Assembly: GCF_048403405.1 (NCBI RefSeq)
Contig: NZ_CP183129.1
Strand: one strand, 5' to 3'
Length of the DNA stretch: 64,000 nucleotides
DNA from: Escherichia coli
GTDB lineage: Bacteria; Pseudomonadota; Gammaproteobacteria; Enterobacterales; Enterobacteriaceae
Shown here piece after piece: positions 9,878 through 62,876 of the stretch (position 1 is its first letter; every line of letters starts with the position of its first letter). Position numbers and translations under genes: made by a program. The notes beneath the pieces are model-generated. The model did no database searches. It saw nothing but the letters and a program-made list of their open reading frames with translations, and was not told the DNA's origin.

Positions 9878-9910
9878 TGGGTACGTTTCCTTATTGTTAT
9901 TCGTAGAGGT

Positions 9911-21319: not shown

Positions 21320-21352
21320 TAAGAATCGGGGCTTTCGCCCCGAAGAAATGGA

Positions 21353-22339: not shown

Positions 22340-22589
22340 TTCAGCCTCATTGCAGGGTAGTCAGGAAGTGTTCGCCCAAATTAGCGCGCTGGAGAGAATA
22401 AGAATTTTCGAATATTTTTATGCAGAATAAACAGCCCTATTTCAGGCAGCTATTAAAAATTTGGTTATAAATATGGACAAAACGGGCAGCAATAATAAGT
22501 GTGACATTCATCACGTAAAAAATAGCAAAATAAACAAAATTAGCGATATTTTATGTTTGTGAGCTTATTTCGCGTAGAAAAATAGTTAT

Positions 22590-23033
22590 CTACACAACGT
22601 CAATAAGGGCATATTCTTCAAAGATAACGTCCATTTCGGGTGAATAGCATCCTTCTGCCTGGAAAAAACGACGGTGTTCATTACGCCAATATTCAAGACT
22701 GAGGTCACCTTCACCTTCCTTACGGGCAAGCTCCGCGGTGACATCAGAAAAGCGCAGTAAATGCAGGCCAATCACTCTGATAACACAGACAGGCTCACCA
22801 CGGCTATTTTCTACAATCTTATACTCACCAATCATCGGAAATGCGTTGTCTTCAATACATCCCGCCAGCGAACCACAGGAAGCTGTTTTAACACCTGTCG
22901 CAATCAACGTTGCGAGGTGATCGGCCAACGCTGCTGAATCGCCAAAAGTACAAAAGGAAGCATGGGGATATTTTTGTGAGATTTTTTCTTTTATGGTCAT
23001 GAGAATATTTTCGCGATTACGGAAAAAAATCAC
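22590..23033 (-). CDS. Small hypothetical protein, possibly ASCH/PUA-like
   Basis: 147 aa ORF (likely shorter, from MTIKEK...); G-V-K-T motif faintly ASCH-like; weak support. Confidence 0.35.
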   Translation of the reverse strand: MIFFRNRENILMTIKEKISQKYPHASFCTFGDSAALADHLATLIATGVKTASCGSLAGCIEDNAFPMIGEYKIVENSRGEPVCVIRVIGLHLLRFSDVTAELARKEGEGDLSLEYWRNEHRRFFQAEGCYSPEMDVIFEEYALIDVV

Positions 23034-23297
23034 ATCTTAATTACTGTTGATAACCATCAGCAAGAGGATCATTGGTTTTTCTATGTTTAATCTTTTTTAT
23101 CCGAAGCCGGTCACATTTATGGCTTGATAAATACCTTTGTTAAAACTCACTTTTGTGTATTTCTCTCAAATAATCCCCTGGAAATTATGCCGGGAGATTA
23201 TAAAGTTCAGGATCATTCATTAGCAAACCATTGCTGCCCCACTCCCTGGGGCTTTAAATCTCTTACGATTCACCATTGCAGGCGTTTCAAATGCGTA

Positions 23298-39922: not shown

Positions 39923-40115
39923 CTCAGGAACCTATCAGATTGAGAGTTACCGTTCTACTATGAGGACCGAATCCTTATATAAAACACTGAGGTAACTCTC
40001 ATGCTTCATATCCAGTATTCATGATGCTGGTTTTTTGCTGATATTTAACCCGAACACTCCTGATACAGCCTATTAATTCATTTATCTGCGGCAGATTTTA
40101 TTTTCTGGATATATT

Positions 40116-40784
40116 ATGAGTGAACAAATCAAACAGGATATCGATCTGATTGAGATTTTATTTTATCTGAAGAAAAAGATTCGTATTATCCTTTTTATTA
40201 TAACTATCTGTATGGCAATGGTGCTGTTGTTTCTGTATATCAATAAAGATAATATAAAAGTGAGTTACAGCCTAAAAATAAACCAGACAACACCAGGCAT
40301 ACTTGTTAGCTGTGATAGCAATAATAACTTTGCCTGTCAGACCACAATGACTGAAGATGTTATTCAGCGAATTACTACATTTTTTCAGACCAGCCCAGAT
40401 GTCAAGAACAGAGAAATAAAGCTGGAATGGTCAGGAGATAAGAGAGATTTACCAACTGCTGAAGCGGAAATATCTCGCGTGCAGGCGTCTATTATCAAAT
40501 GGTATGCGTCAGAATATCATAATGGCAGGCAAGTTCTCGATGAGATACAAACACCTTCAGCAATTAACAGTGAGCTTTATACAAAAATGATATACCTGAC
40601 CAGGAACTGGTCATTGTATCCGAACGGTGATGGCTGTGTAACTATAAGCTCACCAGAAATAAAAAATAAATACCCTGATGCCATTTGCCTGGCTCTGGGA
40701 TTTTTTATAAGCATTGTAATTTCTGTAATGTTTTGCCTTGTCAAAAAAATGGTAGATGGATACCAACAAAACTCTGGGCAGTAA
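40116..40784 (+). CDS. ykgH: Uncharacterized membrane protein
   Basis: 222 aa, AT-rich codon usage, N-terminal and C-terminal hydrophobic segments. Confidence 0.7.
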   Translation: MSEQIKQDIDLIEILFYLKKKIRIILFIITICMAMVLLFLYINKDNIKVSYSLKINQTTPGILVSCDSNNNFACQTTMTEDVIQRITTFFQTSPDVKNREIKLEWSGDKRDLPTAEAEISRVQASIIKWYASEYHNGRQVLDEIQTPSAINSELYTKMIYLTRNWSLYPNGDGCVTISSPEIKNKYPDAICLALGFFISIVISVMFCLVKKMVDGYQQNSGQ

Positions 40785-45479: not shown

Positions 45480-46805
45480 ATGAATAAATATCAGGCAGTT
45501 ATTATTGGTTTTGGCAAGGCTGGAAAAACATTAGCCGTCACGCTGGCAAAAGCAGGTTGGCGTGTGGCTCTCATCGAACAATCAAATGCAATGTATGGCG
45601 GGACCTGTATTAATATCGGCTGTATCCCAACCAAAACATTGGTTCATGACGCACAGCAGCACACAGATTTTGTCCGTGCCATACAGCGTAAAAATGAAGT
45701 GGTTAATTTTTTACGTAATAAGAATTTTCATAATCTTGCGGATATGCCCAATATCGACGTGATCGACGGCCAGGCGGAGTTTATCAATAATCATAGCCTG
45801 CGTGTTCATCGGCCTGAGGGAAATCTGGAAATTCATGGCGAGAAAATTTTTATTAATACCGGTGCACAAACCGTGGTTCCGCCAATTCCTGGAATTACCA
45901 CCACGCCAGGAGTATATGACAGCACCGGATTACTTAATCTAAAAGAATTGCCTGGGCATTTAGGTATTTTAGGCGGCGGATATATTGGCGTTGAGTTCGC
46001 CTCTATGTTCGCTAATTTTGGCAGCAAGGTAACCATTTTAGAAGCAGCTTCGCTGTTTTTGCCTCGGGAAGATCGGGATATTGCTGATAATATCGCGACG
46101 ATTTTACGCGATCAGGGCGTCGATATTATCCTCAATGCCCATGTGGAGCGAATCAGTCACCATGAAAATCAAGTGCAAGTGCATAGCGAGCACGCCCAAC
46201 TGGCGGTGGATGCACTGTTAATAGCTTCCGGTCGTCAACCGGCTACCGCTTCGTTACATCCAGAAAATGCCGGTATCGCAGTCAACGAGCGCGGGGCAAT
46301 TGTCGTTGACAAGCGATTACATACCACCGCAGACAATATTTGGGCGATGGGAGATGTTACCGGCGGGCTGCAATTTACTTATATTTCACTGGATGATTAC
46401 CGCATTGTACGTGATGAGTTACTGGGTGAAGGCAAACGTAGTACTGATGATCGGAAAAATGTGCCTTATTCCGTATTTATGACACCGCCCCTGTCCAGGG
46501 TTGGTATGACAGAAGAACAAGCCAGAGAGAGTGGTGCTGATATTCAGGTGGTGACATTGCCTGTAGCTGCAATTCCGCGCGCCAGAGTGATGAACGATAC
46601 CCGTGGGGTATTAAAAGCGATTGTTGATAATAAAACCCAACGTATATTAGGGGCATCACTGCTGTGTGTTGACTCCCACGAGATGATTAATATAGTGAAA
46701 ATGGTGATGGATGCCGGGCTGCCTTATAGCATATTACGCGATCAGATATTTACTCATCCGTCGATGAGCGAATCACTCAATGATCTATTTTCATTAGTCA
46801 AATAA
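45480..46805 (+). CDS. rclA: Flavoprotein disulfide reductase (reactive-chlorine resistance)
   Basis: ATG 45480 gives MNKYQAVIIGFGKAGK (FAD fold), redox-active CINIGC motif; 441 aa. Confidence 0.85.
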   Translation: MNKYQAVIIGFGKAGKTLAVTLAKAGWRVALIEQSNAMYGGTCINIGCIPTKTLVHDAQQHTDFVRAIQRKNEVVNFLRNKNFHNLADMPNIDVIDGQAEFINNHSLRVHRPEGNLEIHGEKIFINTGAQTVVPPIPGITTTPGVYDSTGLLNLKELPGHLGILGGGYIGVEFASMFANFGSKVTILEAASLFLPREDRDIADNIATILRDQGVDIILNAHVERISHHENQVQVHSEHAQLAVDALLIASGRQPATASLHPENAGIAVNERGAIVVDKRLHTTADNIWAMGDVTGGLQFTYISLDDYRIVRDELLGEGKRSTDDRKNVPYSVFMTPPLSRVGMTEEQARESGADIQVVTLPVAAIPRARVMNDTRGVLKAIVDNKTQRILGASLLCVDSHEMINIVKMVMDAGLPYSILRDQIFTHPSMSESLNDLFSLVK

Positions 46806-46913
46806 ACTCAAAATCAGACGCCAGAACAAATATTCTGGCGTCTCAGAGAAAAGAATCTTATTAATTCTCTGTTACTCTATAACTTCTTAATCACTTCATT
46901 GATGGTATTTTAT

Positions 46914-47150
46914 ATGTTTAAAAAATCTGTTTTATTTGCAACACTATTATCTGGCGTTATGGCATTTTCCACCAATGCAGATGATAAAATAATTCTGAAA
47001 CATATCAGCGTCTCGTCAGTATCAGCATCACCGACAGTTCTGGAGGATGCCATTGCTGATATAGCCAGAAAATATAATGCTTCATCCTGGAAAGTCACAT
47101 CGATGCGAATTGATAATAATTCAACCGCAACAGCAGTATTGTATAAATAA
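46914..47150 (+). CDS. rclB: Small periplasmic protein (DUF1471)
   Basis: 78 aa with signal peptide MFKKSVLFATLLSGVMAFSTNA. Confidence 0.8.
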   Translation: MFKKSVLFATLLSGVMAFSTNADDKIILKHISVSSVSASPTVLEDAIADIARKYNASSWKVTSMRIDNNSTATAVLYK

Positions 47151-47161
47151 GGATGTTCACA

Positions 47162-47755
47162 ATGGAAAAATACCTTCACCTGTTAAGTCGGGGAGATAAA
47201 ATTGGCCTGACATTGATTCGTCTGAGTATTGCGATTGTTTTTATGTGGATTGGGTTATTAAAGTTTGTCCCTTACGAGGCAGACAGCATTACACCATTCG
47301 TCGCAAACAGTCCACTAATGTCGTTCTTTTATGAACACCCGGAAGACTATAAACAGTATCTGACTCACGAAGGCGAATACAAACCAGAAGCAAGGGCATG
47401 GCAATCGGCCAATAATACCTATGGTTTTTCCAACGGTCTTGGCGTCGTGGAGGTGATTATTGCTCTGCTGGTTTTGGCTAATCCTGTCAATCGCTGGTTA
47501 GGTTTATTGGGAGGGCTGATGGCATTTACCACACCGTTGGTAACACTCTCATTTTTAATCACCACCCCGGAGGCATGGGTACCCGCATTGGGTGACGCTC
47601 ATCATGGTTTCCCTTATTTATCTGGTGCTGGTCGCCTGGTATTGAAAGATACTCTGATGCTGGCAGGTGCTGTCATGATAATGGCAGATTCGGCGCGGGA
47701 AATTCTTAAACAACGCAGTAATGAATCCAGTTCAACGTTAAAAACTGAATATTGA
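47162..47755 (+). CDS. rclC: DoxX-like inner-membrane protein
   Basis: 197 aa, four hydrophobic segments; 12 bp after rclB. Confidence 0.8.
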   Translation: MEKYLHLLSRGDKIGLTLIRLSIAIVFMWIGLLKFVPYEADSITPFVANSPLMSFFYEHPEDYKQYLTHEGEYKPEARAWQSANNTYGFSNGLGVVEVIIALLVLANPVNRWLGLLGGLMAFTTPLVTLSFLITTPEAWVPALGDAHHGFPYLSGAGRLVLKDTLMLAGAVMIMADSAREILKQRSNESSSTLKTEY

Positions 47756-47788
47756 TAATCCGAACACTGTCTGTTGTTCACTTTTTCA

Positions 47789-47826
47789 GGCGTCAGGCCC
47801 CCTTTCTGATGATGAAGCCTGACGCC
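47789..47826. other. 10 bp inverted repeat between convergent rclC and the aldo-keto reductase gene
   Basis: ggcgtcaggc...gcctgacgcc with 18 nt loop; no canonical U-tract. Confidence 0.4.
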
Positions 47827-47914
47827 ATATTACCGGAGATATGACAGAGTGAAGATCAATATCACTCCCCTGTTAAAAGATCCTTGTCGTCTCAGGTAAA
47901 ATACATGATTAATA

Positions 47915-48784
47915 TCAATCATGTATTTTTACAGCAAGACAACCACGAACAAATTCAGGATTAAAATGTTTTACCGACTCCCCAACATAACCCAAATCAA
48001 GCGAACTAATTTGTGCCATTTCTTTCTCTGTCAGTGAGAAATCCCAGATAGCAAAATTTTCTTCGATACGCTGTTGATGTGTCGATTTCGGAATAACGAC
48101 CACTCCCCGTTGAATATTCCAACGCAGAATGACTTGAGAAATCGATTTTTGATGGGCATCTGCAATACTCTGAAGCAGATTATTTTCAAAGGGTTTATGT
48201 CGTCCACCACCTAACGGAGCCCATGCTTCAGGCTGCACGTTATAATACTTCATGGTTGCCAGCGCCTCTGGTTGGGCAAAATAGGGATGCAACTCGACCT
48301 GGTTGACCATCGGTTTAACTCTTACCGTTTCACAAAAGTTCGCCAGAACATGAGGATAGAAATTGGAAACCCCAATTGCTTTTAATTTGCCCTCTTCATA
48401 GGCATCTTCGAGTGCACGCCACGCACTGAAATAATCGCGCATAGCCTGGTGCAATAAATAGAGGTCGAAGTATTCTAGTCCCGATTTTTTTAATGATGCT
48501 TCAATACCTGCTTTTGCCGTATCCTGATTCAACATATCCTGCACCCACAATTTAGACGTTATAAATAACTCATCTCGGGTACATAAACCTTCAGATATGG
48601 CTTCACGAACGGCTTCACCGACGGCATCTTCATTACCGTATACCGCTGCAGTGTCGATGAGTCGATAACCCGTGCGGATAGCATTCAACACTGACTGTTT
48701 GCACACGTCTTTATCGGTAACCTGAAAAACACCAAATCCCATCATCGGCATTTTCAGATTGTTACTTAATACGTAAAATTCCAC
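47915..48784 (-). CDS. Aldo-keto reductase, DkgA-like
   Basis: ORF track 47915..48799; I favour GTG at 48782-48784 because a GGAGGG SD lies 7 nt upstream and the N-terminus then aligns with the paralog at 54828; AKR motifs (LIDTAAVYGNE, IGVSNF). Confidence 0.8.
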   Translation of the reverse strand: MEFYVLSNNLKMPMMGFGVFQVTDKDVCKQSVLNAIRTGYRLIDTAAVYGNEDAVGEAVREAISEGLCTRDELFITSKLWVQDMLNQDTAKAGIEASLKKSGLEYFDLYLLHQAMRDYFSAWRALEDAYEEGKLKAIGVSNFYPHVLANFCETVRVKPMVNQVELHPYFAQPEALATMKYYNVQPEAWAPLGGGRHKPFENNLLQSIADAHQKSISQVILRWNIQRGVVVIPKSTHQQRIEENFAIWDFSLTEKEMAQISSLDLGYVGESVKHFNPEFVRGCLAVKIHD

Positions 48785-49031
48785 TGTCAGTCCCTCCATT
48801 AGGTATGAACAATGAGTCTACGTTAAAACGTAACCTCAAATTAGTATGTGGATTTTGATATCACTTATGCAAAAAATTCATTAATAATGTAGGACTGAAA
48901 CCTCTCTATTTTTGGGGCAATGAAGCAGACGCTATCAGTGCTTTTGCCTTGGGACTTGCTGTTTTTGATACACTTAAGGCCCAGGACATAACGAAAATGT
49001 GCGATATGACAAAGAATTAACGGAGAATGTG

Positions 49032-49889
49032 ATGATCAGGCAGAAGATTCTACAGCAGCTCCTGGAGTGGATTGAGTGCAATCTTGAGCACCCTATTTCA
49101 ATCGAAGATATCGCACAGAAATCTGGCTACAGCAGACGCAACATCCAGCTTCTGTTCCGAAATTTCATGCATGTGCCTTTGGGAGAATACATTCGCAAAC
49201 GAAGGCTTTGTCGTGCCGCCATTCTTGTCCGACTCACCGCGAAATCTATGCTTGATATTGCACTCTCTTTACATTTTGACTCACAGCAGTCATTCAGCCG
49301 CGAATTTAAAAAGTTATTCGGCTGCTCTCCCCGTGAATACCGCCACCGTGATTATTGGGATCTCGCAAATATCTTCCCTTCTTTTTTAATACGTCAACAG
49401 CAAAAGACGGAGTGTAGATTAGTCAACTTTCCTGAGACACCTATTTTTGGCAATTCATTTAAATATGATATTGAAGTATCGAATAAATCACCGGATGAAG
49501 AAGTCAAACTGCGACGTCATCATTTAGCCAGATGTATGAAGAATTTTAAGACGGATATCTATTTCGTCTCCACATTCGAACCGTCAACAAAATCGGTCGA
49601 TTTGCTCACAGTTGAAACTTTTTCCGGTACGGTATGCAAACAAACCGATTCAGAGATGTCGAAAGAGTGGACAATTAACCGAGGACTGTATGCCTCTTTC
49701 CGCTATGAAGGTGAGTGGGAGCACTACCCTGAATGGGCGCGAAACCTCTATCTGATGGAATTACCTGCCAGGGGGTTAGCCAGAGTGAACGGCAGTGATA
49801 TTGAGCGATTTTATTACAATGAAAACTTCGTCGAAATTGATAGCAATAACATTGTTTGCGAAATTTTTATCCCCGTTCGCCCGGTTTAG
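49032..49889 (+). CDS. ykgA: AraC/XylS-family regulator with C-terminal GyrI-like effector domain (intact)
   Basis: ATG 49032 with GGAG SD 6 nt upstream; N-terminal HTH (IEDIAQKSGYSRRNIQLLF), C-terminal Rob-like domain. Confidence 0.8.
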   Translation: MIRQKILQQLLEWIECNLEHPISIEDIAQKSGYSRRNIQLLFRNFMHVPLGEYIRKRRLCRAAILVRLTAKSMLDIALSLHFDSQQSFSREFKKLFGCSPREYRHRDYWDLANIFPSFLIRQQQKTECRLVNFPETPIFGNSFKYDIEVSNKSPDEEVKLRRHHLARCMKNFKTDIYFVSTFEPSTKSVDLLTVETFSGTVCKQTDSEMSKEWTINRGLYASFRYEGEWEHYPEWARNLYLMELPARGLARVNGSDIERFYYNENFVEIDSNNIVCEIFIPVRPV

Positions 49890-49943
49890 CTGTAGCGATG
49901 TTTACATGAATTTATAACGAGACTACTGTCAGGCAATTCAATA

Positions 49944-49976
49944 AATAATGGCGTTGAAGATGTCAACGCCATTATT
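49944..49976. terminator. Bidirectional rho-independent terminator between convergent ykgA and fdeC
   Basis: Perfect 14 bp stem aataatggcgttga / tcaacgccattatt, 5 nt loop, T-rich flanks on both strands. Confidence 0.75.
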
Positions 49977-50009
49977 GTTTATTAGAATGTTACTTTCATA
50001 TTCTTAATA

Positions 50010-53000
50010 TTACTTCATCGCCTCCTCGCCCTTTGCCGTATCGGCATCCACCGCGGTTATGGTCACCGTCACTGGCTTCATTTCGTACCCGCCATAGGTC
50101 AGGGCGTTAAATGTGAACGTATAGACACCAGGCTTGCTGGTACTAAATGTACGCGTGATTTTTCCGCTCACGAAATGGTCATTTTTCGACGGCAGGAATT
50201 GATAATCCTTCTCCGTCACTCCTTCCGGAGCCTCAATGTCGACCCACACATTCCCCCCAACAGGGTTATTTGCCGAGAACAGGGTAACCTCCAGCTTCGC
50301 AGTCGATTTCCCATCCGCCACCAGCGATTGCACATCAGATGATGCGGTGAGCTCCGCGTTTTTATCATCCGCGACGAATTTAGATTCGGCAGTTTTCGTT
50401 GATACCTGACCGTTGGTCTGACTCACTTGCGCCTTGAGTGTGTATGTCGCCGCAACAGTAGTGGTAGCGGTGAAAATAGCCTGCCCTTGCTCATTCGTTG
50501 TCGCAGTGCCATTCGGTTCCAGGTTTAACGAAGCCGGGCTGGCAGTCAGCGTCACGTCGCTATCTTTCAACAGGTTGTTATTGGCATCAGTCACCGTAAC
50601 TTTATACGTCTGTTTGGCTTTGCCGTCCGCCAGTGCATAGATGCCAATCACCTCAATACTGGAAACGGTTGCGGTAGCCTTATCGGCTACAAACGTTATA
50701 GTCTGCGCATCTGAAGGCTGGTCATTTCCTGCCGACGCCGTGATCTCATAGGTTCCGGCAGTCACGGAAACCACCTGCAACTCTGCTTTCCCCTCATCGT
50801 TGGCTTTCACCCAGACATTATCGCCAGTAAGCGGCTTGACACCCCGGGGCAGATTAAAGGTCACCAGAGTGCCTGGAACAGGGTTACCGTTTTTATCCTC
50901 AACGGTCGCCGTCAGCGTAAAGGCATCTTTGCCGTTTGCCACTTTTTGAACGGCGGTGTCTACCTGCAGGTTTGCCTGACCGGTGCTGGCATCCGCGTTG
51001 AATTTCACCGTGACCGTCTTCTGAGAGTTTTTCACCGCGGCCGCGATTTCAAGTTCCCCTGCAACGGTTGATATCAACTCAATATCCGCTTTACCTGCCG
51101 CATTGGTTGTTACTGTATTCCCCGTCTTGCTAGTCACACCCTGCGGTAAAGTCAGCGTAACTTCTTGCCCCTGCAACGGGTTACCATAGCTGTCCACGAC
51201 GGTCAGGGTTACCTGGTTAGCAGACTGTCCATTTGCCAGTTGGTTATTCACCTTCACCGCCATATCACTGATCACTGCCCGGGAAGCGTCGCCTGCAACA
51301 TTCAGCACCAGTGGCTGAGCAACGGCATTTTGGCCGTTCACTCGCGGCATCACAGACAACTGACCCGCGGCAGATCCCAGCGTTAAGGTCGCCACGTAGA
51401 CCCCATTACCTTTCTCTGTCCAGTTTCCTGCTGAAGGACGCTCACTCCCCGTGCTGGCGGCACCGCTAAACACTGGTGCATCTGGCTTCAGCCCGGTGAC
51501 CGAGTTCCCATACGCATCCTTCACGGTGAAGGTGAGTTCCGTCGTCGTTTTGACGGTCGGAGCCTTATTGTCCGCAACAAGCGTAGAGTTCGCTGATGAC
51601 ATCTCTCCGGCGATGACCGTCAACTGTGCGGCTTCGGTGGCTGCTGGCTGGCCGTTGAAGAGCGGCATGACGCGAAGCTCGCCCGTCTTTCCGCCTGTAG
51701 TCAACGTAGCAACATAGGAACCGTCACCTTTTTCGGTCCAACTGGAAACGGTCGCCCCTTCAGAGGCGGTCCCCGTCAAACTTGCCGACAACGAAAGACC
51801 ACTGATAGCGTTGCCATGTGCATCTTTCGCCACCAACGTCACGGTTGTGCTTTCGCCGGCTTTTACGTGATCTTCCGCGACAGAGACTTTCGACTGGTTT
51901 GAAGATAACGCATCAGCCACCACGGTTACTTTTGCCGCATTTGCTGCCGCATCCTGTCCATTTAGCTTCGGCATAACTTCTAATTCACCCGCCGTAGAGC
52001 CGAGAGTAATCTGCGCAGTCCACGTCCCATCACCATTATTTGTCCAGCCAGATGCCGTAGAACCAACAGCAGCGGCACCCGCTAATGACGGCGCTTCCGG
52101 CGTGAGGCTGGTCACAGGGTTGTCATTGGCATCTTTTGTCGACCAGATTGCCGTAAGCGTACCGCCGACCACCGGTTTATCAGGATTCAGGGTGATGGAC
52201 GAATGTGCTGCATCAAGCGGCCCGGCAACAAACTTCAGCGTTTGTTGTAATGTGCCCAGCTGATACTGCTCGCTGAAGGCGCGCAAAACAACGTTTCCGG
52301 CACGGGTCGAAGAAACCGTGGCGCTGTAAACCCCTGGTTTTATTTCCGAAATGGCACCAACGGTAACACCATTAGTGTCTTGCGGAACAAGTCGCAGGCG
52401 GCTGGCTTCTCCCGTCACCGGATTACCCTCGGAGTCCACCGCAGTCAGCGTCAGCGTGTAGGCTTGCTGACCATCAGCAACCACGTCACCTGACGGCTCG
52501 TTAGCGCTCAGGGTGGAGTTTGCCACATCCATCATCGTGGCCCGCAGTTCTGCAGTGACGGTTTTGCTCATGCCATCAACGCTAACAGTAATCGTTGCCT
52601 CACCTGACTGCGTTCCGGTCGTAAAGACAGACTGATACACCCCTGCTTCAGTTTCGGTGAACTCACCCAGTGTTGGCTTTGCCTGTGATTTAGTGGCCTT
52701 CAGGGAACGAGTCACAATATTTCCAGCCGGTTTGAAGGTTAGTTCAGTCTTGATCTGCTCCTTCATGCCCGTGACTGGCTGGCCCTCGGCGTCGCGCAGA
52801 GACAGCACCAGCGGCTTTTGCTCATTACCGTTAGCAAGCATTTGAATACGGCTCTGACCGTCAAGCGTTAACGCCGTGCGATCGGCGCTCATACCAGCTC
52901 CGGTAATAACCACTTCTGTCTGCACACGTTTCGAGGCATTACCTTTGTTATCGTAGGCAACTGCTGAAATCGCATAATAATTGTCTTTGCCTGGACGGTA

Positions 53001-54263
53001 AGCCGGGAGCGTTACTTGCCACTGACTACCCTGACCGGTAATTTTGCCACCTTCAGCCAGTAATGACGGCGCTTCCCATTGCACATTTTTCAGTCCGTGA
53101 GTTGCTTTGCTGACCACAAGCCCCAGGGAAAGTGTCTGACCGCCCTTGCCTTCAATACGCTCAGGCAGAGCAATACGAATCACTTCAGATTTGCGGTACT
53201 CAAGAACGATGTTGTTATTACGCTCAACCAGGTCATAGCGGCTGCCTGCCAGCATTCGACGCTCGCGAATGCTGTCTGTATCGAGTTGTTTTTCCAGAGG
53301 TTCGCCAATCCGATAATTAACTTCCAGGCCAAAGCGAGTGTCATTCTCACCACTCTTGCCCTGCTTATGCCCGGCACTCAGGGTCAGAAGAGGCACTGGC
53401 GTGTAATTCACTTCAGCGGTAATCGCATGTGGATCTTTCTGGCGTTTATCTTTACCAAACAGCCCGACTTCATCGCCATAATACTGTTCATACATCAGGC
53501 TTGCGCCAAGCTGCGGCCAGGCAGGTAAATAGCCCTCAGCACGAATATCCCAGCCATTCGCCGGGCGTTCCTGATAATCCTCAACATCCGGTGATTTTTT
53601 CCAGCCAGAAGCCCGGATATAACCATTGGCGCTCAGTTTCAAATAATCACGCCAGTATTCCGCACCAACACCAATGCGGGTATGACTACGGGATAAATCA
53701 TGATCGATAAAAGTATTCACCCCCGCCATCCAGTCATTTCCTGAAAAATGACGCCAGCCAAAACCAATATTTGACTGAGTACGATCGTCGGTACGATGTA
53801 TTGCCCCCTGAGTGAACAACATATTTGTCGGCGTATCATAAATAGGATAAAGCATTTCCAGCGAAGAATCCTTCAGCGAGAAATCTTTATCGACATTCAG
53901 TTTGACGCGCGCTGTACCATATTTTCCGAGCCACTCCTGTATTTCCTGGTTAGCTTTAGCGGTGGCTATTCCGGTAATAAAATTACGTGTCGCATCGCTA
54001 TCTGGCTGACTGCTTAAAAATGTCCCGGCATTTGCGGCAAACGACGCGACATTTTTCTCCACGTTATTATCACCAGTTACCGTAGTATTTCCCATGCTCA
54101 ACCGTGGCTGAACCGCATGCTGCGCACGTGCCGCCATTACTGGGGTAAAGGTGACAGCGAGTGGAAAAAGAACCTGAACAGAGATATTTGCCCACGCCAC
54201 GCAGCGGGCCAGAACTGAATAACGAAATCGTGGTTGTTTATGACCTGTTTTATAACGTGACAT
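50010..54263 (-). CDS. fdeC: Intimin/invasin-family inverse autotransporter adhesin with multiple Big (Ig-like) domains, intact
   Basis: 1417 aa; N-terminal signal and beta-barrel-like region followed by many approx. 100 aa Ig-like repeats (recurring ...TAVDSEGNPV.../...TVTDANGNP...-type segments). Confidence 0.85.
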   Translation of the reverse strand: MSRYKTGHKQPRFRYSVLARCVAWANISVQVLFPLAVTFTPVMAARAQHAVQPRLSMGNTTVTGDNNVEKNVASFAANAGTFLSSQPDSDATRNFITGIATAKANQEIQEWLGKYGTARVKLNVDKDFSLKDSSLEMLYPIYDTPTNMLFTQGAIHRTDDRTQSNIGFGWRHFSGNDWMAGVNTFIDHDLSRSHTRIGVGAEYWRDYLKLSANGYIRASGWKKSPDVEDYQERPANGWDIRAEGYLPAWPQLGASLMYEQYYGDEVGLFGKDKRQKDPHAITAEVNYTPVPLLTLSAGHKQGKSGENDTRFGLEVNYRIGEPLEKQLDTDSIRERRMLAGSRYDLVERNNNIVLEYRKSEVIRIALPERIEGKGGQTLSLGLVVSKATHGLKNVQWEAPSLLAEGGKITGQGSQWQVTLPAYRPGKDNYYAISAVAYDNKGNASKRVQTEVVITGAGMSADRTALTLDGQSRIQMLANGNEQKPLVLSLRDAEGQPVTGMKEQIKTELTFKPAGNIVTRSLKATKSQAKPTLGEFTETEAGVYQSVFTTGTQSGEATITVSVDGMSKTVTAELRATMMDVANSTLSANEPSGDVVADGQQAYTLTLTAVDSEGNPVTGEASRLRLVPQDTNGVTVGAISEIKPGVYSATVSSTRAGNVVLRAFSEQYQLGTLQQTLKFVAGPLDAAHSSITLNPDKPVVGGTLTAIWSTKDANDNPVTSLTPEAPSLAGAAAVGSTASGWTNNGDGTWTAQITLGSTAGELEVMPKLNGQDAAANAAKVTVVADALSSNQSKVSVAEDHVKAGESTTVTLVAKDAHGNAISGLSLSASLTGTASEGATVSSWTEKGDGSYVATLTTGGKTGELRVMPLFNGQPAATEAAQLTVIAGEMSSANSTLVADNKAPTVKTTTELTFTVKDAYGNSVTGLKPDAPVFSGAASTGSERPSAGNWTEKGNGVYVATLTLGSAAGQLSVMPRVNGQNAVAQPLVLNVAGDASRAVISDMAVKVNNQLANGQSANQVTLTVVDSYGNPLQGQEVTLTLPQGVTSKTGNTVTTNAAGKADIELISTVAGELEIAAAVKNSQKTVTVKFNADASTGQANLQVDTAVQKVANGKDAFTLTATVEDKNGNPVPGTLVTFNLPRGVKPLTGDNVWVKANDEGKAELQVVSVTAGTYEITASAGNDQPSDAQTITFVADKATATVSSIEVIGIYALADGKAKQTYKVTVTDANNNLLKDSDVTLTASPASLNLEPNGTATTNEQGQAIFTATTTVAATYTLKAQVSQTNGQVSTKTAESKFVADDKNAELTASSDVQSLVADGKSTAKLEVTLFSANNPVGGNVWVDIEAPEGVTEKDYQFLPSKNDHFVSGKITRTFSTSKPGVYTFTFNALTYGGYEMKPVTVTITAVDADTAKGEEAMK

Positions 54264-54539
54264 TGAGATAATTTCCTGATGAACGAATTAACGAACATAG
54301 GCAGACACAAATAGTGGCGTCTGCTTGTCAGAAAAACCGGGAAATCCCCGATTTCCTTTTCCGCAGAAAAGGAAATACCTTTATGTAAGAAAGTACACCG
54401 CCACCTAATATATCCAGTGTCTGTAGCCACTCATCAGGTGGTTGGGCGCGGGATTATATTTTTATTTATGGGTAAAAATTTAGCTTTTTGTGCAAGTTAT
54501 TAAATAGATACCTAAGTTATATTTTTACTCTGCGGACAG

Positions 54540-54568
54540 TGAATAATTCATTATTCAGAGTGAATAAT
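54540..54568. promoter_or_regulatory. Perfect palindrome TGAATAAT-tc-ATTATTCA plus a third TGAATAAT half-site
   Basis: Read directly in the divergent fdeC / AKR intergenic region; binding factor unknown. Confidence 0.4.
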
Positions 54569-54812
54569 AATGGCCTGCCTTTAATTAACAACTATTGGAA
54601 ATACGTCGAAGTAGGTATATACGCCAGGATAAACCGATATATTTTTTATGGATATTCATTTTCCTTTATCGGACTGTAAATTGCGGGGATATCGAACTTG
54701 CACTACTCATCGCAACACTCAAACAGATTTATGAATTTCGTTCATAACCCCTGACAAATCCTGCCGTCTAATCGAGCTCTTCTCTTTACGTTATGCTTCT
54801 CATGAACGATAA

Positions 54813-57679
<2,867 letters not shown>

Positions 57680-57819
57680 CTATTATTTTAACCACATTAT
57701 TAGTAACAATGATAATCTGGCTGTATCGAAAATAATTCTAAACTTTCAGGAGATTTATTATGAATAAACGTATCCTCACGATTGCGCCATTCTTCTTACC
57801 GATATTCTGACACACATCA

Positions 57820-58746
57820 TTAACTTTCTATTTTTACTCTTTTCTCCACCATAAAATCAATAAAAGCACGAACTTTAGAGGGCATTCTCACCCGTGATGA
57901 AACATATATATAAAATCCAGGAAATGAAACGGCCCAATCCTCAAGAATCGGCTGTAACTTGCCCGCATTGATATGTTCAGCGATTGCAAAATCCAGATGT
58001 TGAATGATACCCGTTCCATTCAGCGCCATTCGTATCATGCTTTCGTCATCATTAGAAATATACTTACCTGAAACCTCTATTTCGAACTCTTCATTACCCC
58101 CCACAACATTAGAAAACTCCCATGCAGAGAGTGCACCGCTACTTTTATGCCGCAACCGAAGGCAATTATGGTTACTCAGTTCCTGAGGCGTTTCAGGAAT
58201 ACCGTGTTCTTTTAAATAATCTGGCGATGCCACAGTAACCAGTTTAATAAGCGGAGAAACAGGAACGGCAGTCATATGCTCATCCAGTCCTTGCTCAAGA
58301 CGTATGCCCACATCACAGCCGTCCGCAATAATGTTAGATAAACCGTCATCCATAATGAGTTCTATCTTTGTTTTGGGGTAACGAGTAAGAAACTCGCCAA
58401 TATGAGGCTCAACAAGCATCCGTGCTGCAACACGGGAGGAATTTATTCTCAACAGGCCTGTAGGTTCAAGTTGGGTATCACCAACATCTTTCAAAGCATC
58501 ATCAATTTGCCCCAAAGCCGACACCAGCACTTCATACAGACGCTGTCCTTCCTCAGTAAGCGACATATTGCGGGTCGTACGGTATATCAGCTTGGTGTTA
58601 AGACGTTCCTCAAGAGATTTTAAATTCTGGGACAATGCGGCCCGTGTAATACCCATTTCAGAAGCGGCTCTGGAAAAACTGCCGGCACGAACAATAAGCG
58701 CAAACCAGGCAAGAGAAGGCAAAATTGAAGGCTCTATTTTCATCAT
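57820..58746 (-). CDS. LysR-family transcriptional regulator, divergent from hydrolase/OYE genes
   Basis: ORF track 57820..58809; ATG at 58744-58746 gives MMKIEPSILPSLAWFALIVRAGSFSRAASEMGITRAALSQNLKSLE. Confidence 0.8.
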   Translation of the reverse strand: MMKIEPSILPSLAWFALIVRAGSFSRAASEMGITRAALSQNLKSLEERLNTKLIYRTTRNMSLTEEGQRLYEVLVSALGQIDDALKDVGDTQLEPTGLLRINSSRVAARMLVEPHIGEFLTRYPKTKIELIMDDGLSNIIADGCDVGIRLEQGLDEHMTAVPVSPLIKLVTVASPDYLKEHGIPETPQELSNHNCLRLRHKSSGALSAWEFSNVVGGNEEFEIEVSGKYISNDDESMIRMALNGTGIIQHLDFAIAEHINAGKLQPILEDWAVSFPGFYIYVSSRVRMPSKVRAFIDFMVEKRVKIES

Positions 58747-58902
58747 TGTAAACCTTAACTTAACACTGTGATAGATATTAGACCATTGATGATAACCAAT
58801 ACAAGTCATACTATTACGCCGTTCTCGATATGAACACGAATGCCAGTTGCGGATAATAGAAATGATATTTAAATCTGTTTAGGCAAATCCCCGGAGCTTG
58901 AA

Positions 58903-59823
58903 ATGAAAACTGTTTCGATAAAACATACTTACTGGGATATAGCTGCTGATATCTATTTCCCTGACGATTTTAATAGTGAAAAAAAGTATCCTGCCATTAT
59001 CAGCGCCCATCCAATTGGAAGCTGCAAAGAACAGACATCGGGCAGTGTGTATGGTGCCGCCCTGGCAAAAGCTGGCTTTATCGTCATTGCTTTTGATGCC
59101 AGTTTTCAGGGAAGCAGCGGTGGAGAACCGCGTTATCTGGAAGATCCAACAATGCGAGTAAAAGACTTCAGCATTGTCGTTGATTACCTTACCACCTTAC
59201 CTTACGTTGATGCCGGGCGTATTGGTGTACTGGGTATTTGTGGTGGAGGTGGATATGCCATTAATGCCGCAATGACAGAACGTCGAATTAAAGCTATTGG
59301 TACTGTCACGGGTGCAAACTACGGGCGTCTTATGCGTGAGGGATTTACAGCGTTTAATCCTATCGGAGCACTCGAAGCGATGGCGCAACAAAGAACAGAC
59401 GAAGCTAACGGCGCAAAACTTCGCGTAGATGATTTACTCCCCTCTTCTCCGGATGCAGCTCTTGAAGCGGGATTAACAGAAATAGACCTTTTTGAAGCCA
59501 CAGAATATTATCGTTCGCCACGAGGCTGTGCACCTAATGGGGTAAATCGTTCGCTATTCTCACATCAGACTGTTGCCGTGGGTTGGGATGCATTTCATCT
59601 TGCAGAAGTCCTGTTAACTCAACCAATAATGGTTGTGGTGGGCGATAGAGTGGGCGCATTTGGTGCCTACCGTGACGGCTGCGAAATTATTGGCCGCGCT
59701 GCCTCAAAACATAAAGAGCTGGTCGTGGTTGAAGGTTATTCACATTACGACCTGTATGATAAGCCAGAACCTGTGAAACAGGCACTCGAAAAATTAATTC
59801 CTTTTTATAAAACACATTTGTAA
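58903..59823 (+). CDS. Alpha/beta hydrolase, dienelactone-hydrolase-like with Cys nucleophile
   Basis: 306 aa; nucleophile elbow GICGGGGY with Cys in place of the usual Ser, as in dienelactone hydrolases. Confidence 0.7.
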   Translation: MKTVSIKHTYWDIAADIYFPDDFNSEKKYPAIISAHPIGSCKEQTSGSVYGAALAKAGFIVIAFDASFQGSSGGEPRYLEDPTMRVKDFSIVVDYLTTLPYVDAGRIGVLGICGGGGYAINAAMTERRIKAIGTVTGANYGRLMREGFTAFNPIGALEAMAQQRTDEANGAKLRVDDLLPSSPDAALEAGLTEIDLFEATEYYRSPRGCAPNGVNRSLFSHQTVAVGWDAFHLAEVLLTQPIMVVVGDRVGAFGAYRDGCEIIGRAASKHKELVVVEGYSHYDLYDKPEPVKQALEKLIPFYKTHL

Positions 59824-59831
59824 TAATCTTA

Positions 59832-59865
59832 CAGGGAGATTCCTTATCTCCCTGACATTTATCCT
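59832..59865 (+). terminator. Rho-independent terminator after the hydrolase gene
   Basis: cagggagat-tcctt-atctccctg followed by a T-rich tract. Confidence 0.6.
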
Positions 59866-59995
59866 TTATTGACTACACAACAATAATAAAATTACTCAAA
59901 AAGAATTCTATTAAAGGAAAAAAGCATCAAAAAGTAGCAACTCAACTTATTAAGATTATACGCATTAAAATCAGATAAACATTTGAGGTATTGTT

Positions 59996-61138
59996 ATGAC
60001 AAATAAACACCCATCATTGTTTTCTCCTTTTATGCTGACAGAAAAAATAAAGCTACGTAATCGTATCGTTATGGCCCCTATGACGACCTGGTCAGCGAAT
60101 CCTGATGGAACCATCTCTGAGCAAGAACTCGAATTTTATAAACGCCGCTCACAAAATGTTGGTTTAGTAATAACAGGATGTACCTATGTCACGCCAAGCG
60201 GCATTGGGTTTACTCATGAATTTGCCGCGTATGACGACCGTTTCATTAACAGCCTTGAAAAGTTAGCAGCGGCAGCCAAAAGTGGCGGTGCTCCGGCTAT
60301 TTTGCAGATTTTCCACGCCGGTAATAAAGCCATCCCGGAGCTTGTGCCAAATAACGATGTTATTAGTGCCAGCGCATCAAGCGTAAAATCTGGTGACTTT
60401 ATGAAGAGAGTGGTACAAAGCAGGGAAATGACTGAAAACGAAATTCAGGAAACCATTAGAGCATTCGGAGATGTCACAAAAAGGGCGATTAAAGCAGGTT
60501 TTGATGGCGTTGAACTTCATGGTGCGCACGGATTCCTTCTGCAGAATTTCTTCTCCCCTCTATTTAACCAGCGTAATGACCGATGGGGAGGAGATCTTGA
60601 AGGACGTATGCGCTTCCCGCTGGCCGTATTACAGGAAGTAAAAAATGTAGTCTATGAATATGCGACAAAGCGCTTTGCTATCGGTTACAGAATATCTCCT
60701 GAAGAATCTGTAACAGGGGGGCTGCGGATAGAGGATACTTATAAACTCCTTGATCGACTCATTTCATCCGGTATTTCGTATATACATACCTCGCTGGTCA
60801 GTATTAACGATAGCTACCCTGTTGAGTCGCCAAATGGCCCCCGAACTATTGAATTGATTTTAAATCATATTGCAGGCAGAGTGCCGGTAATCGCTGCAGG
60901 TAAAATACGCACACCGTCTCAGGCTCAAGAAGCAATTTCCGCTGGCCTGCCACTTGTTGCGATCGGTAAAGGGCTGGTGATAAATCCAGAATGGGTGACT
61001 TTAGCTGAATCAGGTAGAAGCCATGAAATTCAAACAACCCTTAATCCACAACTTGTTCCTGAATTAACCATTCCGGATAAACTATGGGATCAAATTCAGG
61101 CATCGAAAGGAACTGGCTGGTTTCCGTTAATGGATTAA
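59996..61138 (+). CDS. NADH:flavin oxidoreductase, Old Yellow Enzyme family
   Basis: 380 aa; OYE active-site signature ELHGAHGFLLQNFFSP and TIM-barrel FMN motifs. Confidence 0.85.
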   Translation: MTNKHPSLFSPFMLTEKIKLRNRIVMAPMTTWSANPDGTISEQELEFYKRRSQNVGLVITGCTYVTPSGIGFTHEFAAYDDRFINSLEKLAAAAKSGGAPAILQIFHAGNKAIPELVPNNDVISASASSVKSGDFMKRVVQSREMTENEIQETIRAFGDVTKRAIKAGFDGVELHGAHGFLLQNFFSPLFNQRNDRWGGDLEGRMRFPLAVLQEVKNVVYEYATKRFAIGYRISPEESVTGGLRIEDTYKLLDRLISSGISYIHTSLVSINDSYPVESPNGPRTIELILNHIAGRVPVIAAGKIRTPSQAQEAISAGLPLVAIGKGLVINPEWVTLAESGRSHEIQTTLNPQLVPELTIPDKLWDQIQASKGTGWFPLMD

Positions 61139-61568
61139 ATATCTATTACTCTCCCGAGAGTAAAACTATTAAACCAATGAGTAACCGATACAGCCTCGCA
61201 AATTCTTTCAGATAATTAACTCGTCACTGCGGCACGTTCTCTCGTAAGGCGTGCCTGCTGTGTAATCCAGTATGTATCCGGCATAGTTGACGGTTTAATA
61301 GAACTCAATTCCTCTCCCAGGTCACCAACAACGATATCTTGTATAACACCCCAGGAGATACGACATTATGATGAGATGCGATATGCTCCTCAGCGCCAAT
61401 CAACGCCCGGGCTGGGCCAGTTTTGAGATCAGACTCATTCCCGGACTGACTTCAGGCGACATATATCAATGACGTTGGGGCAATAAAAGATAGCCGATGT
61501 AATACATCTATTCAAATTTGTGATACATGTCAAAAAATTGGTTGACCAAACTCGTTATTTATATAAGG

Positions 61569-61593
61569 GCACTTACGAAGTGCACTCTTTTTT
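61569..61593 (+). terminator. Small terminator-like hairpin with T6 tract just upstream of ykgR
   Basis: gcactt-acg-aagtgc-actc-tttttt. Confidence 0.45.
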
Positions 61594-61610
61594 AAAGCGA
61601 GGAAGTACCA

Positions 61611-61712
61611 ATGAAAGAGAATAAAGTACAACAAATCAGTCATAAACTGATTAATATCGTTGTTTTTGTCGCAATTGTAGAATACGCCTATTTATTTCTC
61701 CATTTCTATTAA
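61611..61712 (+). CDS. ykgR: Small hydrophobic protein (33 aa)
   Basis: ATG 61611 with SD gaggaag; MKENKVQQISHKLINIVVFVAIVEYAYLFLHFY; not in the supplied ORF track (too short), found by hand. Confidence 0.6.
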   Translation: MKENKVQQISHKLINIVVFVAIVEYAYLFLHFY

Positions 61713-62037
61713 TAACGGCAATAAACTGTTCACTTCAGTGATATTAAAAAATATGCATCCTCTCCCTTTTTTGTAAGTAATTATTATATCCGTGGGAGAG
61801 GAATACACGCTGTCCGGCAATCAAACTGCGATAAATCATCGGCCAGTAAAATGGAGATAGCCTCCATTCTCGAAAAATTCATACTCTCAGCGAAACCATC
61901 ACTCATCAAGGCGTTTATGGGAGCGTCGCCAATGGCTGCTAACAATGCCAGACTTCCCCGTTACCGAAATTCCACATACCACAAATGGTCACAGGGATTG
62001 GGTGTTGAAATGATCCGGATGAGCATGTATCTTTATG

Positions 62038-62470: not shown

Positions 62471-62527
62471 TTCAAAATTCGACGAATTAACGATATTTGT
62501 CTGATTAATAATCAGACCGGATTAATG

Positions 62528-62558
62528 TTGGTGTATTTATTACACCAGCATTAATTTT
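62528..62558 (+). terminator. Terminator-like hairpin downstream of ykgMO
   Basis: ttggtgta-tttat-tacaccag followed by cattaatttt. Confidence 0.5.
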
Positions 62559-62876
62559 CCTGGGGATGTATCTTCCTGTTCATTTAAGGTCAACTGCCTG
62601 ACGTTTCTCTCCGAATATTCCATTATATTAATGTTGACTTGTTGACCAGGTGCGCCCTGTATGCTGGCATCAACTCTCTTTTAGACTGAACACGCCACTC
62701 AGTTTCCTCCCTTTGCGACGCAGCCTGCATTTACACTCAAACGGTTAAGATGATAAATGTGGTAAATCTGTTGGTACTGACATAAAAACGTTTACGCCAC
62801 AGGAACGGCCTGATCCACCGGTAACCCCATCGCCGACGTTCGAGTGCCAGTTAGAGTAACGCGCACAGATGACTGA

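Follow-up and report, generated by a model that had tools for sequence, protein, structure and literature searches.

An undisrupted fdeC locus in Escherichia coli and the separate lesions that set K-12 apart from it

A 64,000-nucleotide stretch of Escherichia coli DNA (hereafter the window) carries the adhesin gene fdeC beside a regulator and a reductase gene, and a first-pass annotation proposed that it preserves the ancestral state of a locus that K-12 lost, which raises the question of what K-12 lost, by which events, and how widely the intact state is kept. Positions 46000-56000 are 100% identical to a record of E. coli MS 69-1 from the human gut (NZ_CP146675.1), and the comparison was made by aligning K-12 MG1655 to the window and inspecting junction sequences. 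Results indicate that the window very probably holds the complete, undisrupted E. coli fdeC locus, of which K-12 has a version decayed through at least four independent events. The make-up of the locus and its disruption in K-12 are already known, having been published in 2012, when up to three regulators and five reductases or hydrolases were described, along with the presence of only an N-terminal fdeC pseudogene in K-12 strains (Nesta et al. 2012, PMC3324786). As an adhesin FdeC has already been characterised, and it is a vaccine candidate; its intact gene carries little weight as a discovery.

The locus is bounded by the rclABC operon and ykgR. Starting at rclC, the gene order is a DkgA-like aldo-keto reductase, a divergent Rob-like ykgA and fdeC convergent to ykgA, followed beyond fdeC by two reductases, two LysR regulators, a hydrolase and a flavin oxidoreductase. 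The part of the locus from the end of rclC to the region upstream of fdeC contains the following features:

47789-47826: GC-rich hairpin with a 10-bp stem and an 18-nt loop, between convergent rclC and reductase genes
47915-48784, minus strand: AKR1, an aldo-keto reductase and DkgA-like paralogue, 289 aa (RefSeq CDS WP_001445689.1; Pfam)
48785-49031: divergent intergenic region between AKR1 and ykgA (from gene orientation), kept in K-12 at 94.7% identity
49032-49889, plus strand: ykgA, a Rob-like regulator, 285 aa (RefSeq helix-turn-helix protein; Pfam)
49944-49976: hairpin with a perfect 14-bp stem, a 5-nt loop and A/T-rich flanks, between convergent ykgA and fdeC
50010-54263, minus strand: fdeC (eaeH), an inverse autotransporter (type Ve) adhesin, 1417 aa (RefSeq WP_000092628.1)
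54264-54827: AT-rich region upstream of fdeC (GC 0.38 in 54200-54599)

Gene starts follow the RefSeq annotation of NZ_CP146675.1 (the 100% match), and two of them give genes shorter than the longest open reading frames (ORFs), which an ORF scan placed at 47915-48799 (minus strand), 48999-49889 (plus strand) and 50010-54263 (minus strand, 1417 aa). AKR1 can also be read from an ATG further upstream, at 48799. Translation and RefSeq gave zero internal stops and zero pseudogene flags for the reductase, ykgA and fdeC, and no transposase-sized ORF or IS element was detected by an ORF scan of 47915-54263. The adhesin, regulator and reductase genes had been described as intact and free of an IS element, a description that these uninterrupted ORFs, all of them RefSeq CDSs, bear out.

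The reductase belongs to the same fold family as the DkgA and DkgB 2,5-didehydrogluconate reductases (Aldo_ket_red, PF00248, Pfam E 2.8e-43). It is a separate paralogue, scoring 235.6 bits against the NCBIfam DkgA model NF008598, well under the equivalog-level cut-off of 425; the earlier label of a full "DkgA-like" reductase is therefore fair for this 289-aa ORF, and "DkgA" would not be. Its closest solved relatives are 1VP5 and 4MHB, with E. coli DkgA (1MZR) at 200 bits. Alignment to 1VP5 showed conservation of the active-site motifs LIDTA, AxxYxNE, SKLW and LxxxHQ, carried in AKR1 by the stretches LIDTAAVYGNE, TSKLW and LYLLHQ. We take these motifs to represent the Asp-Tyr-Lys-His tetrad of the family.

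YkgA combines an N-terminal AraC-type double helix-turn-helix (HTH_18/HTH_AraC; HTH_18 at residues 27-106) with a C-terminal GyrI-like ligand-binding domain (residues 127-283, profile positions 2-155 of 155), as had been noted from the ORF. This is the architecture of Rob, which with MarA and SoxS belongs to the AraC-family stress regulators, and YkgA aligns end to end with the NCBIfam RobA model NF012228. The score (195.1 bits) lies below the cut-off of 380, hence YkgA, judged by its sequence, is a paralogue of Rob and not Rob itself. The gene has been described as a SoxS/MarA/Rob homologue with targets unknown as of 2007 (PMC2064960), and a full-text literature search for ykgA returned no studies of YkgA targets. 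One speculative reading makes the gene neighbourhood functional and not accidental: YkgA may use its GyrI-like domain to sense a small electrophile or xenobiotic, and control both the divergent reductase and FdeC display. We consider this very improbable; if true, it would tie adhesion to an oxidant and electrophile defence cluster extending from rclRABC across the reductase and LysR genes to the flavin oxidoreductase.

The product of fdeC has a signal region and a beta-barrel, and its long passenger is built from Ig-like domains in tandem. Pfam matched the barrel to IAT_beta at residues 76-350 (profile positions 3-279 of 279, E 3.6e-110) and the passenger to nine Invasin_D3 and four Big_1 stretches. 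Residues 113-357 match the barrels of invasin and intimin (4E1T and 4E1S; E 4e-72 to 9e-84), and the FdeC crystal fragment 4E9L aligns to residues 595-1008 (E 1.1e-245). RefSeq names the identical protein "inverse autotransporter adhesin FdeC". The NCBIfam search gave no match above cut-off for FdeC and only other inverse-autotransporter models below theirs, and orthology thus rests on synteny, sequence identity and the 4E9L match. Synteny is illustrated by FdeC of the extraintestinal pathogenic strains IHE3034 (ECOK1_0290) and CFT073, also known as EaeH of enterotoxigenic H10407: in CFT073 the chromosomal position and neighbours are the same as in the window, and the protein has 1416 rather than 1417 aa and the same barrel and Ig-repeat architecture. 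Amino acid identity is 92.0% to CFT073 FdeC and 95.3% to O157 FdeC. The distal ~400 aa of the passenger are only 61-89% identical to those of CFT073, making the window protein an allelic variant.

The 1417-aa protein had been called an intimin-family adhesin, which holds in the sense of the broad superfamily (IAT_beta barrel and Ig-like passenger) and fails in the narrow one, as the curated intimin model NF033627 (intimin_all) gave 387.1 bits, well short of its cut-off of 1400, and covered only residues 59-466. Intimin (Eae) and Yersinia invasin share a homologous beta-barrel and tandem Ig-like passengers with FdeC, whereas the FdeC passenger is much longer and the protein has no LysM or lectin-type domain according to Pfam. 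FdeC-type adhesins have been treated as a subfamily apart from intimin and invasin, and shown to consist of a barrel plus a passenger and to be assembled with the help of TAM (Heinz et al. 2016, PMC4943183). FdeC has been demonstrated to mediate adhesion and aggregation and to bind collagen, and surface display and adhesion were shown in IHE3034 and in K-12 W3110 expressing fdeC (Nesta et al. 2012, mBio, PMC3324786). Like these characterised orthologues, the window protein would insert its N-terminal beta-barrel in the outer membrane and export a rod of Ig-like domains, which would be expected to bind host cells and collagen and to promote aggregation. Expression and adhesin activity in MS 69-1 are likewise predicted from an intact ORF with the right domains.

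The genes had further been described as separated by "clean terminators", including a perfect 14-bp stem at 49944-49976. That stem is an exact inverted repeat, with arms AATAATGGCGTTGA (49944-49957) and TCAACGCCATTATT (49963-49976) around the loop AGATG, and its fold is stable (-21.1 kcal/mol on the plus strand, z = -6.5; -19.2 on the minus strand, z = -6.2), with 0/200 shuffles folding as well on each strand. It ranked first among the terminator-like sites in the scan and has T-rich runs on both sides, and is probably a bidirectional intrinsic terminator for ykgA and fdeC. O157 and SA31-1 have the stem unchanged, BL21 has it with mismatches, and in CFT073 it is reduced to ~10 bp. The description fits this gap, where the hairpin is of the classic kind, but not the gap between the reductase and ykgA, which is a presumed divergent promoter region and not a terminator; 48785-49031 presumably holds the promoters of both AKR1 and ykgA. 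At the rclC side, the inverted repeat GGCGTCAGGC/GCCTGACGCC folds at -21.2 kcal/mol (plus) and -25.2 (minus), with z about -5 to -6, and lacks a clear T tract; its role as a terminator is putative. Upstream of fdeC, 54264-54827 is presumed to be the promoter and regulatory region of the adhesin gene, and a perfect 11-bp hairpin lies at 54351-54376.

Four separate lesions distinguish MG1655 from the window, namely two deletions in AKR1, a replacement by IS3 and a 6.2-kb deletion. The first three affect these segments (alignment and junctions):

48044-48143: first AKR1 segment deleted in K-12, 100 bp, between 9-bp direct repeats TGAGAAATC
48184-48768: second AKR1 segment deleted in K-12, about 585 bp
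49691-53387: segment replaced by IS3 in K-12

K-12 was described in the first-pass annotation as having truncated eaeH and ykgA around an IS3 copy, with a dehydrogenase pseudogene nearby, and MG1655 has exactly this arrangement, the pseudogene being that of the reductase: the eaeH'-IS3-ykgA' pseudogene cluster occupies the same locus with flanks 95-99% identical, and contains an IS3 transposase and fragments in place of the intact genes. About 685 nt of AKR1 are gone; what is left is its last 129 nt (a C-terminal pseudogene), an island of 49 nt and a few codons at the start. The IS3 replacement cost ykgA its final ~199 nt and fdeC 3378 nt from its 3' end, and the terminator between them is gone as well. 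The codons of ykgA are kept to about window position 49690, where IS3 sequence begins, and the fdeC/eaeH remnant is an 876-nt N-terminal fragment (292 aa).

The IS3 copy in MG1655 at this site spans nt 315229-316483, 1255 bp (XL1-Blue paper, PMC11148124). Its right inverted repeat (TGATCCTACCC...) is intact, and its left end begins TCTTACCC..., with the first 3 nt (TGA) missing. The junction sequences contain no target duplication flanking the element and include a 4-bp TCTT microhomology. An independent IS3 in SA31-1, by comparison, has both full TGATC... ends, an AAC duplication and a length of about 1258 bp between the full ends. A simple insertion, or an adjacent deletion made by the transposase, was rejected as the origin of the K-12 lesion because the junction falls within the element, 3 nt in from its end. 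The left end without TGA and the lack of a target duplication instead point to insertion followed by deletion, and we infer that a 3.7-kb deletion followed the insertion of IS3, truncating ykgA at its 3' end, erasing the terminator and most of fdeC, and trimming 3 nt from the tip of IS3. Two microhomology deletions within AKR1 and a separate 6.2-kb deletion of the downstream cluster would complete the series. Because the outer 3 nt are missing at one end, the K-12 copy should be unable to transpose normally, as predicted from its sequence; a statement that these nucleotides are missing in K-12 was not found in the literature examined.

The 6.2-kb deletion adjoins fdeC and is absent from the first-pass annotation. 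The region it affects comprises:

54814-61046: segment absent from K-12, 6.2 kb, six genes (alignment, junctions, RefSeq)
54828-55679 and 55706-56695: aldo-keto reductases
58903-59823: alpha/beta hydrolase
59996-61138: NADH-dependent flavin oxidoreductase, most of it inside the segment

The segment also encodes two LysR regulators, and K-12 retains 92 nt from the end of the flavin oxidoreductase gene as a pseudogene.

Each of these lesions leaves a gene fragment collinear with the intact window gene, at 95-99% identity; the K-12 state is therefore derived, and K-12 descends from a genome with intact genes. No observation ran against these structural conclusions. Nothing was found to favour the opposite view, in which K-12 is the older state and the intact genes were assembled or inserted later in other lineages. 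Against it, K-12 has truncated pieces of four genes (the 3' end of AKR1, ykgA without its 3' end, the 5' end of fdeC and the end of the oxidoreductase), all collinear with the complete genes. With one junction lying inside the IS3 end and the full downstream cluster present in outgroup Escherichia genomes, that alternative is almost certainly wrong, and was refuted by the collinear remnants. Outgroups were sought by scanning genome contigs with a degenerate barrel motif, which yielded three loci, all of them ending before ykgA and AKR1. Escherichia sp. E1V33 is collinear with window positions 51837-61814 at 91% identity and has the six downstream genes intact, and E. whittamii has the 5' part of fdeC and the next genes. 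The proposal of a preserved ancestral state is thus upheld by the collinear K-12 remnants and by non-coli Escherichia that carry fdeC and the downstream cluster. For AKR1 and ykgA, ancestry beyond E. coli would have to be argued from the K-12 remnants and from the presence of both genes in the divergent E. coli lineages CFT073 and O157:H7, the former with the full arrangement as in the window. The third locus, in E. coli E69, matched only window positions 52673-54496 (86%) and has different upstream neighbours.

Descent from an intact ancestor does not settle how this particular allele arose. The 3' third of fdeC is 87% identical to CFT073 at the nucleotide level, against 98% for its flanks (92% to O157, with flanking genes at 97-99%), and this divergence suggests that the fdeC allele may have come by recombination rather than by strictly vertical descent. 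A rival reading extends this to the intact state itself, which would then have been re-acquired, or have received its allele from another E. coli lineage through homologous recombination. In keeping with that reading, besides the mosaic divergence, records of at least 99% identity number 13 for fdeC versus 317 for the reductase-ykgA region. Nonetheless, the edges show no mobile-element scars or break in composition, the same gene order is found in CFT073, O157 and another Escherichia species, and we regard recombination as quite unlikely to account for the intact state. Allele exchange would in any case leave unchanged the conclusion that the K-12 state is derived. A different objection is that fdeC is intact but cryptic in this commensal strain, being permanently silenced (e.g., by H-NS on the AT-rich upstream region) and of no use to the cell, in which case "functional adhesin gene" would be overstated. 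The low GC content upstream of the gene is compatible with this, and fdeC is reportedly regulated by H-NS and temperature, both of which figure in the title of a 2014 study by Easton et al. Surface expression is also said to be triggered by host-cell contact, in a statement that PMC4943183 makes in citing Nesta et al. Taken together, the contact trigger and the H-NS and temperature regulation mean that an intact ORF need not imply that the adhesin is made under ordinary conditions. However, a full-length ORF is kept in most genomes, commensals included (counts below), with HS and SE11 as commensal examples (Nesta et al. 2012, PMC3324786), and protein identity in the barrel region is 94-100% across lineages. 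Such wide retention points to purifying selection, and hence to a gene that is used in at least some circumstances, so that permanent silencing is on balance unlikely.

The undisrupted locus, as a reading of the window, was set against 5426 complete genomes, in which presence was defined as at least 80% coverage and lesions were counted from K-12-type junction sequences. Full-length fdeC was present in 4585/5426; its intact state is common among E. coli and not special to the window. The region of the reductase and ykgA was covered in 2929 genomes and the 6.2-kb segment in 1785 (about a third), and the whole window arrangement is estimated to occur in about a third of genomes. The K-12 IS3/fdeC junction was found in 301 of the 5426, compared with 2091 for the K-12-type AKR1 double-deletion junction and 2831 for the K-12-type 6.2-kb deletion junction. 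Only the IS3 lesion is therefore specific to the K-12 lineage, and the AKR1 and 6.2-kb deletions are widespread natural alleles. The phrase "a locus that K-12 lost" accordingly stands in that K-12 carries remnants, but it sums at least four events of which IS3 alone is K-12-specific. For the fdeC region K-12 makes a poor reference, as does BL21 independently, and the per-event counts separate a laboratory-lineage lesion (IS3) from alleles that are common in nature (the AKR1 and 6.2-kb deletions).

A 10-kb query (window 46000-56000) was 100% identical to the chromosome of E. coli MS 69-1 (NZ_CP146675.1), a human colon isolate, and the window corresponds to positions 3973106-4037105 of that record, spanning lacA/cyn through prp, yah, bet, ykgEFG and rclRABC to ecpRAB. 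An ORF scan recovered the three ORFs where the first-pass annotation had placed them, and all are ordinary, unflagged RefSeq coding sequences in the identical record:

47915-48784, minus strand, aldo/keto reductase
49032-49889, plus strand, helix-turn-helix protein (ykgA)
50010-54263, minus strand, "inverse autotransporter adhesin FdeC"

Upstream start codons explain the slightly longer reductase and ykgA ORFs reported at first, leaving unaffected the claim that the genes are intact. The reductase, YkgA and FdeC contain no internal stops, match the lengths of their CFT073 and O157:H7 orthologues to within one residue, and have complete domain architectures (Pfam). Elsewhere in the window, ykgL (about 62505-62730), which is intact in K-12, is frameshifted according to the MS 69-1 annotation. 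The autotransporter genes hyxR-hyxA-hyxB, located just before ykgH in CFT073 and O157:H7, were not seen between betA and the ykgH-like gene (39923-40784), nor were they seen in K-12.

YkgA comprises an AraC-type helix-turn-helix pair and a full GyrI-like domain (Pfam). It aligns with Rob end to end, yet scores below the RobA cut-off; the literature groups the ykgA product with SoxS, MarA and Rob as a homologue and gives its targets as unknown (PMC2064960). In the reductase, Pfam finds a full-length Aldo_ket_red domain, and the conserved active-site motifs of its family are present; it scores below the DkgA cut-off and is a DkgA-like paralogue. The divergent arrangement of the two genes suggests a putative regulator-target pair.

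The arrangement described for K-12, with truncated genes flanking an IS3 copy, agrees with both the MG1655 record and its alignment to the window. The record contains a 129-nt reductase remnant, a ykgA lacking its C-terminus, the IS3 transposase and an 876-nt N-terminal fdeC fragment (292 codons, ending within the beta-barrel). The alignment resolved four lesions, the last of them absent from the first-pass annotation:

48044-48143, 100-bp deletion in the reductase gene, between 9-bp direct repeats (TGAGAAATC)
48184-48768, second deletion in the reductase gene, about 585 bp
49691-53387, replaced by IS3, with loss of the final ~199 nt of ykgA, the terminator and 3378 nt from the 3' end of fdeC
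54814-61046, 6.2-kb deletion

The 6.2-kb deletion takes two more aldo-keto reductases, two LysR regulators and an alpha/beta hydrolase, and cuts an NADH-dependent flavin oxidoreductase gene down to its final 92 nt. Judged from sequence, the K-12 state is the derived one, because each of the four lesions leaves a fragment collinear with an intact gene of the window (95-99% identity). A further K-12 deletion lies within the same window: a segment of ~5.2 kb between yahK and yahJ (17975-23234), encoding four ABC-transporter genes (one for an "autoinducer 2" type substrate-binding protein) and an ASCH-domain gene, is missing in K-12 save for a 70-nt match at 22568-22637, and a 75-nt pseudogene remnant is annotated there.

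The K-12 IS3 copy lies between the ykgA and eaeH (fdeC) remnants (8999-10253 of the extracted MG1655 locus, corresponding to window 49691-53387). Its right inverted repeat (TGATCCTACCC...) is intact and abuts ykgA, and its left inverted repeat starts at TCTTACCC..., without the first 3 nt (TGA). A search of the flanks for a 3-bp target duplication found none, and four bases (TCTT) are common to fdeC and the IS end at the junction. The short left end and absent duplication rule out a plain IS3 insertion. Strain SA31-1, by comparison, carries an independent IS3 elsewhere in the same locus, with both ends full, an AAC duplication and about 1258 bp between the ends, versus 1255 bp in MG1655 (coordinates 315229-316483; PMC11148124). 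In the simplest history for K-12, IS3 would first have inserted, and a microhomology deletion would then have removed 3.7 kb of chromosome together with the IS tip. Normal transposition of the truncated copy is unlikely.

The lesions differ in their frequencies among complete E. coli genomes:

Occurrence among 5426 complete E. coli genomes
fdeC covered at least 80%: 4585/5426
Reductase-ykgA region covered at least 80%: 2929/5426
6.2-kb segment present: 1785/5426
K-12 IS3/fdeC junction: 301/5426
K-12-type reductase deletion junction: 2091/5426
K-12-type 6.2-kb deletion junction: 2831/5426

Intact fdeC is thus the majority state, and the whole window arrangement occurs in about a third of genomes, an estimate resting on the count for the 6.2-kb segment (1785 genomes) and on the proportion of similarity-search rows with full coverage. 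Among the matches listed, the IS3/fdeC junction was carried by laboratory or K-12-related strains (e.g., ER1709 and HB101); hence, of the K-12 lesions, only the IS3 event is a K-12-lineage feature. The reductase and 6.2-kb deletions are widespread natural alleles. CFT073 has the whole window arrangement, and O157:H7 has the downstream segment in an intermediate form. E. coli B/BL21 retains a full ykgA and also has the K-12-type reductase and 6.2-kb deletions, but most of its fdeC was lost through a different, IS-free internal deletion (9814-10770 of the locus from a BL21 derivative), so that 957 nt at the 5' end and about 270 nt at the 3' end survive. Both classic laboratory lineages therefore lack FdeC, for different reasons.

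In the 1417-aa FdeC, Pfam places a complete inverse-autotransporter beta-barrel at residues 76-350 (E 3.6e-110); C-terminal to it, nine stretches match Invasin_D3 and four match Big_1. This architecture is intimin-family in the broad superfamily sense. The barrel is matched by invasin and intimin barrel structures, and residues 595-1008 match the crystallised FdeC fragment 4E9L (E 1.1e-245). By orthology, the protein would be a type Ve (inverse autotransporter) adhesin, with its N-terminal barrel in the outer membrane and an Ig-domain passenger exported through it, as in the barrel/passenger topology and TAM-assisted assembly demonstrated for CFT073 FdeC (Heinz et al. 2016, PMC4943183). Nesta et al. 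2012 (PMC3324786) demonstrated that FdeC mediates epithelial-cell adhesion and aggregation, binds collagen and gives protection in a model of urinary-tract infection. The variable part is the distal third of the passenger, with 61-89% protein identity to CFT073 per 100 residues, versus 94-100% in the barrel, as expected for an exposed adhesin tip. At the DNA level, the 3' third of fdeC (50010-51500) is 87% identical to CFT073 and 92% to O157, and flanking genes are 97-99% identical (98% to CFT073). Subtypes of FdeC at 60-95% identity have already been described (PMC4943183).

The region upstream of fdeC is AT-rich and, ~90 nt upstream of the start codon, contains a perfect 11-bp inverted repeat (ATTTCCTTTTC/GAAAAGGAAAT, 4-nt loop, 54351-54376), which may be a regulatory site. 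Going by the title of a 2014 paper from Easton et al., fdeC is reportedly controlled by H-NS and temperature.

The first-pass annotation described clean terminators between the genes, including a perfect 14-bp stem at 49944-49976. That stem is exact, with a 5-nt loop, and folds stably (-21 kcal/mol on one strand, -19 on the other; z about -6 versus shuffled controls). Its position between convergent ykgA and fdeC, with A/T-rich runs on either side, fits a predicted bidirectional intrinsic terminator. In O157 and SA31-1 the stem is likewise exact; in BL21 it is mismatched and in CFT073 shortened to ~10 bp. The plural holds only in part: between the reductase gene and ykgA lies a presumed divergent promoter region, and the GC-rich hairpin that separates rclC from the reductase gene combines a large loop with the lack of a clear T tract. 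A near-perfect 16-nt palindrome (AAAATACATGATTAAT/ATCAATCATGTATTTT, 47898-47929) spans the stop codon of the first reductase gene.

The locus has three regulators plus five genes for reductases or hydrolases, which matches the gene content stated by Nesta et al. for fdeC (PMC3324786); the same paper states that in K-12 strains fdeC is reduced to an N-terminal pseudogene. The contrast with K-12 is therefore correct and already known. The additions here are incremental: per-event breakpoints, the IS3 end truncation, lesion-by-lesion population counts and the independent loss in BL21. The observation is thus confirmed, and its interpretation as an ancestral state is supported with refinements. 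A degenerate FdeC-barrel motif, run in a single scan against species-representative genomes, returned three loci. Over window 51837-61814 the locus of Escherichia sp. E1V33 is collinear (91% identity), with all six downstream genes intact ORFs, and that of E. whittamii comprises the 5' part of fdeC and then the first downstream genes. Both support ancestry of the full downstream cluster in the genus; the comparison beyond E. coli covered fdeC and the genes downstream, the loci stopping short of ykgA and the first reductase gene. The third, from E. coli E69 (CP089930.1; 7066-8878 of the extracted locus), a separate species representative, matches only the fdeC 5' region (52673-54496, 86%) and has upstream neighbours unrelated to those of the window. 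Only a distant FdeC homologue (27.6% identity) is reported for E. albertii (PMC11420993). Other strains show repeated IS insertions at various points of the locus (47800-61300): IS1203 in O157 strains, IS5 in 118UI, IS3 in SA31-1 and 21AH007, IS2 in GmM062 and ISVsa5 in Br_112_kylling.
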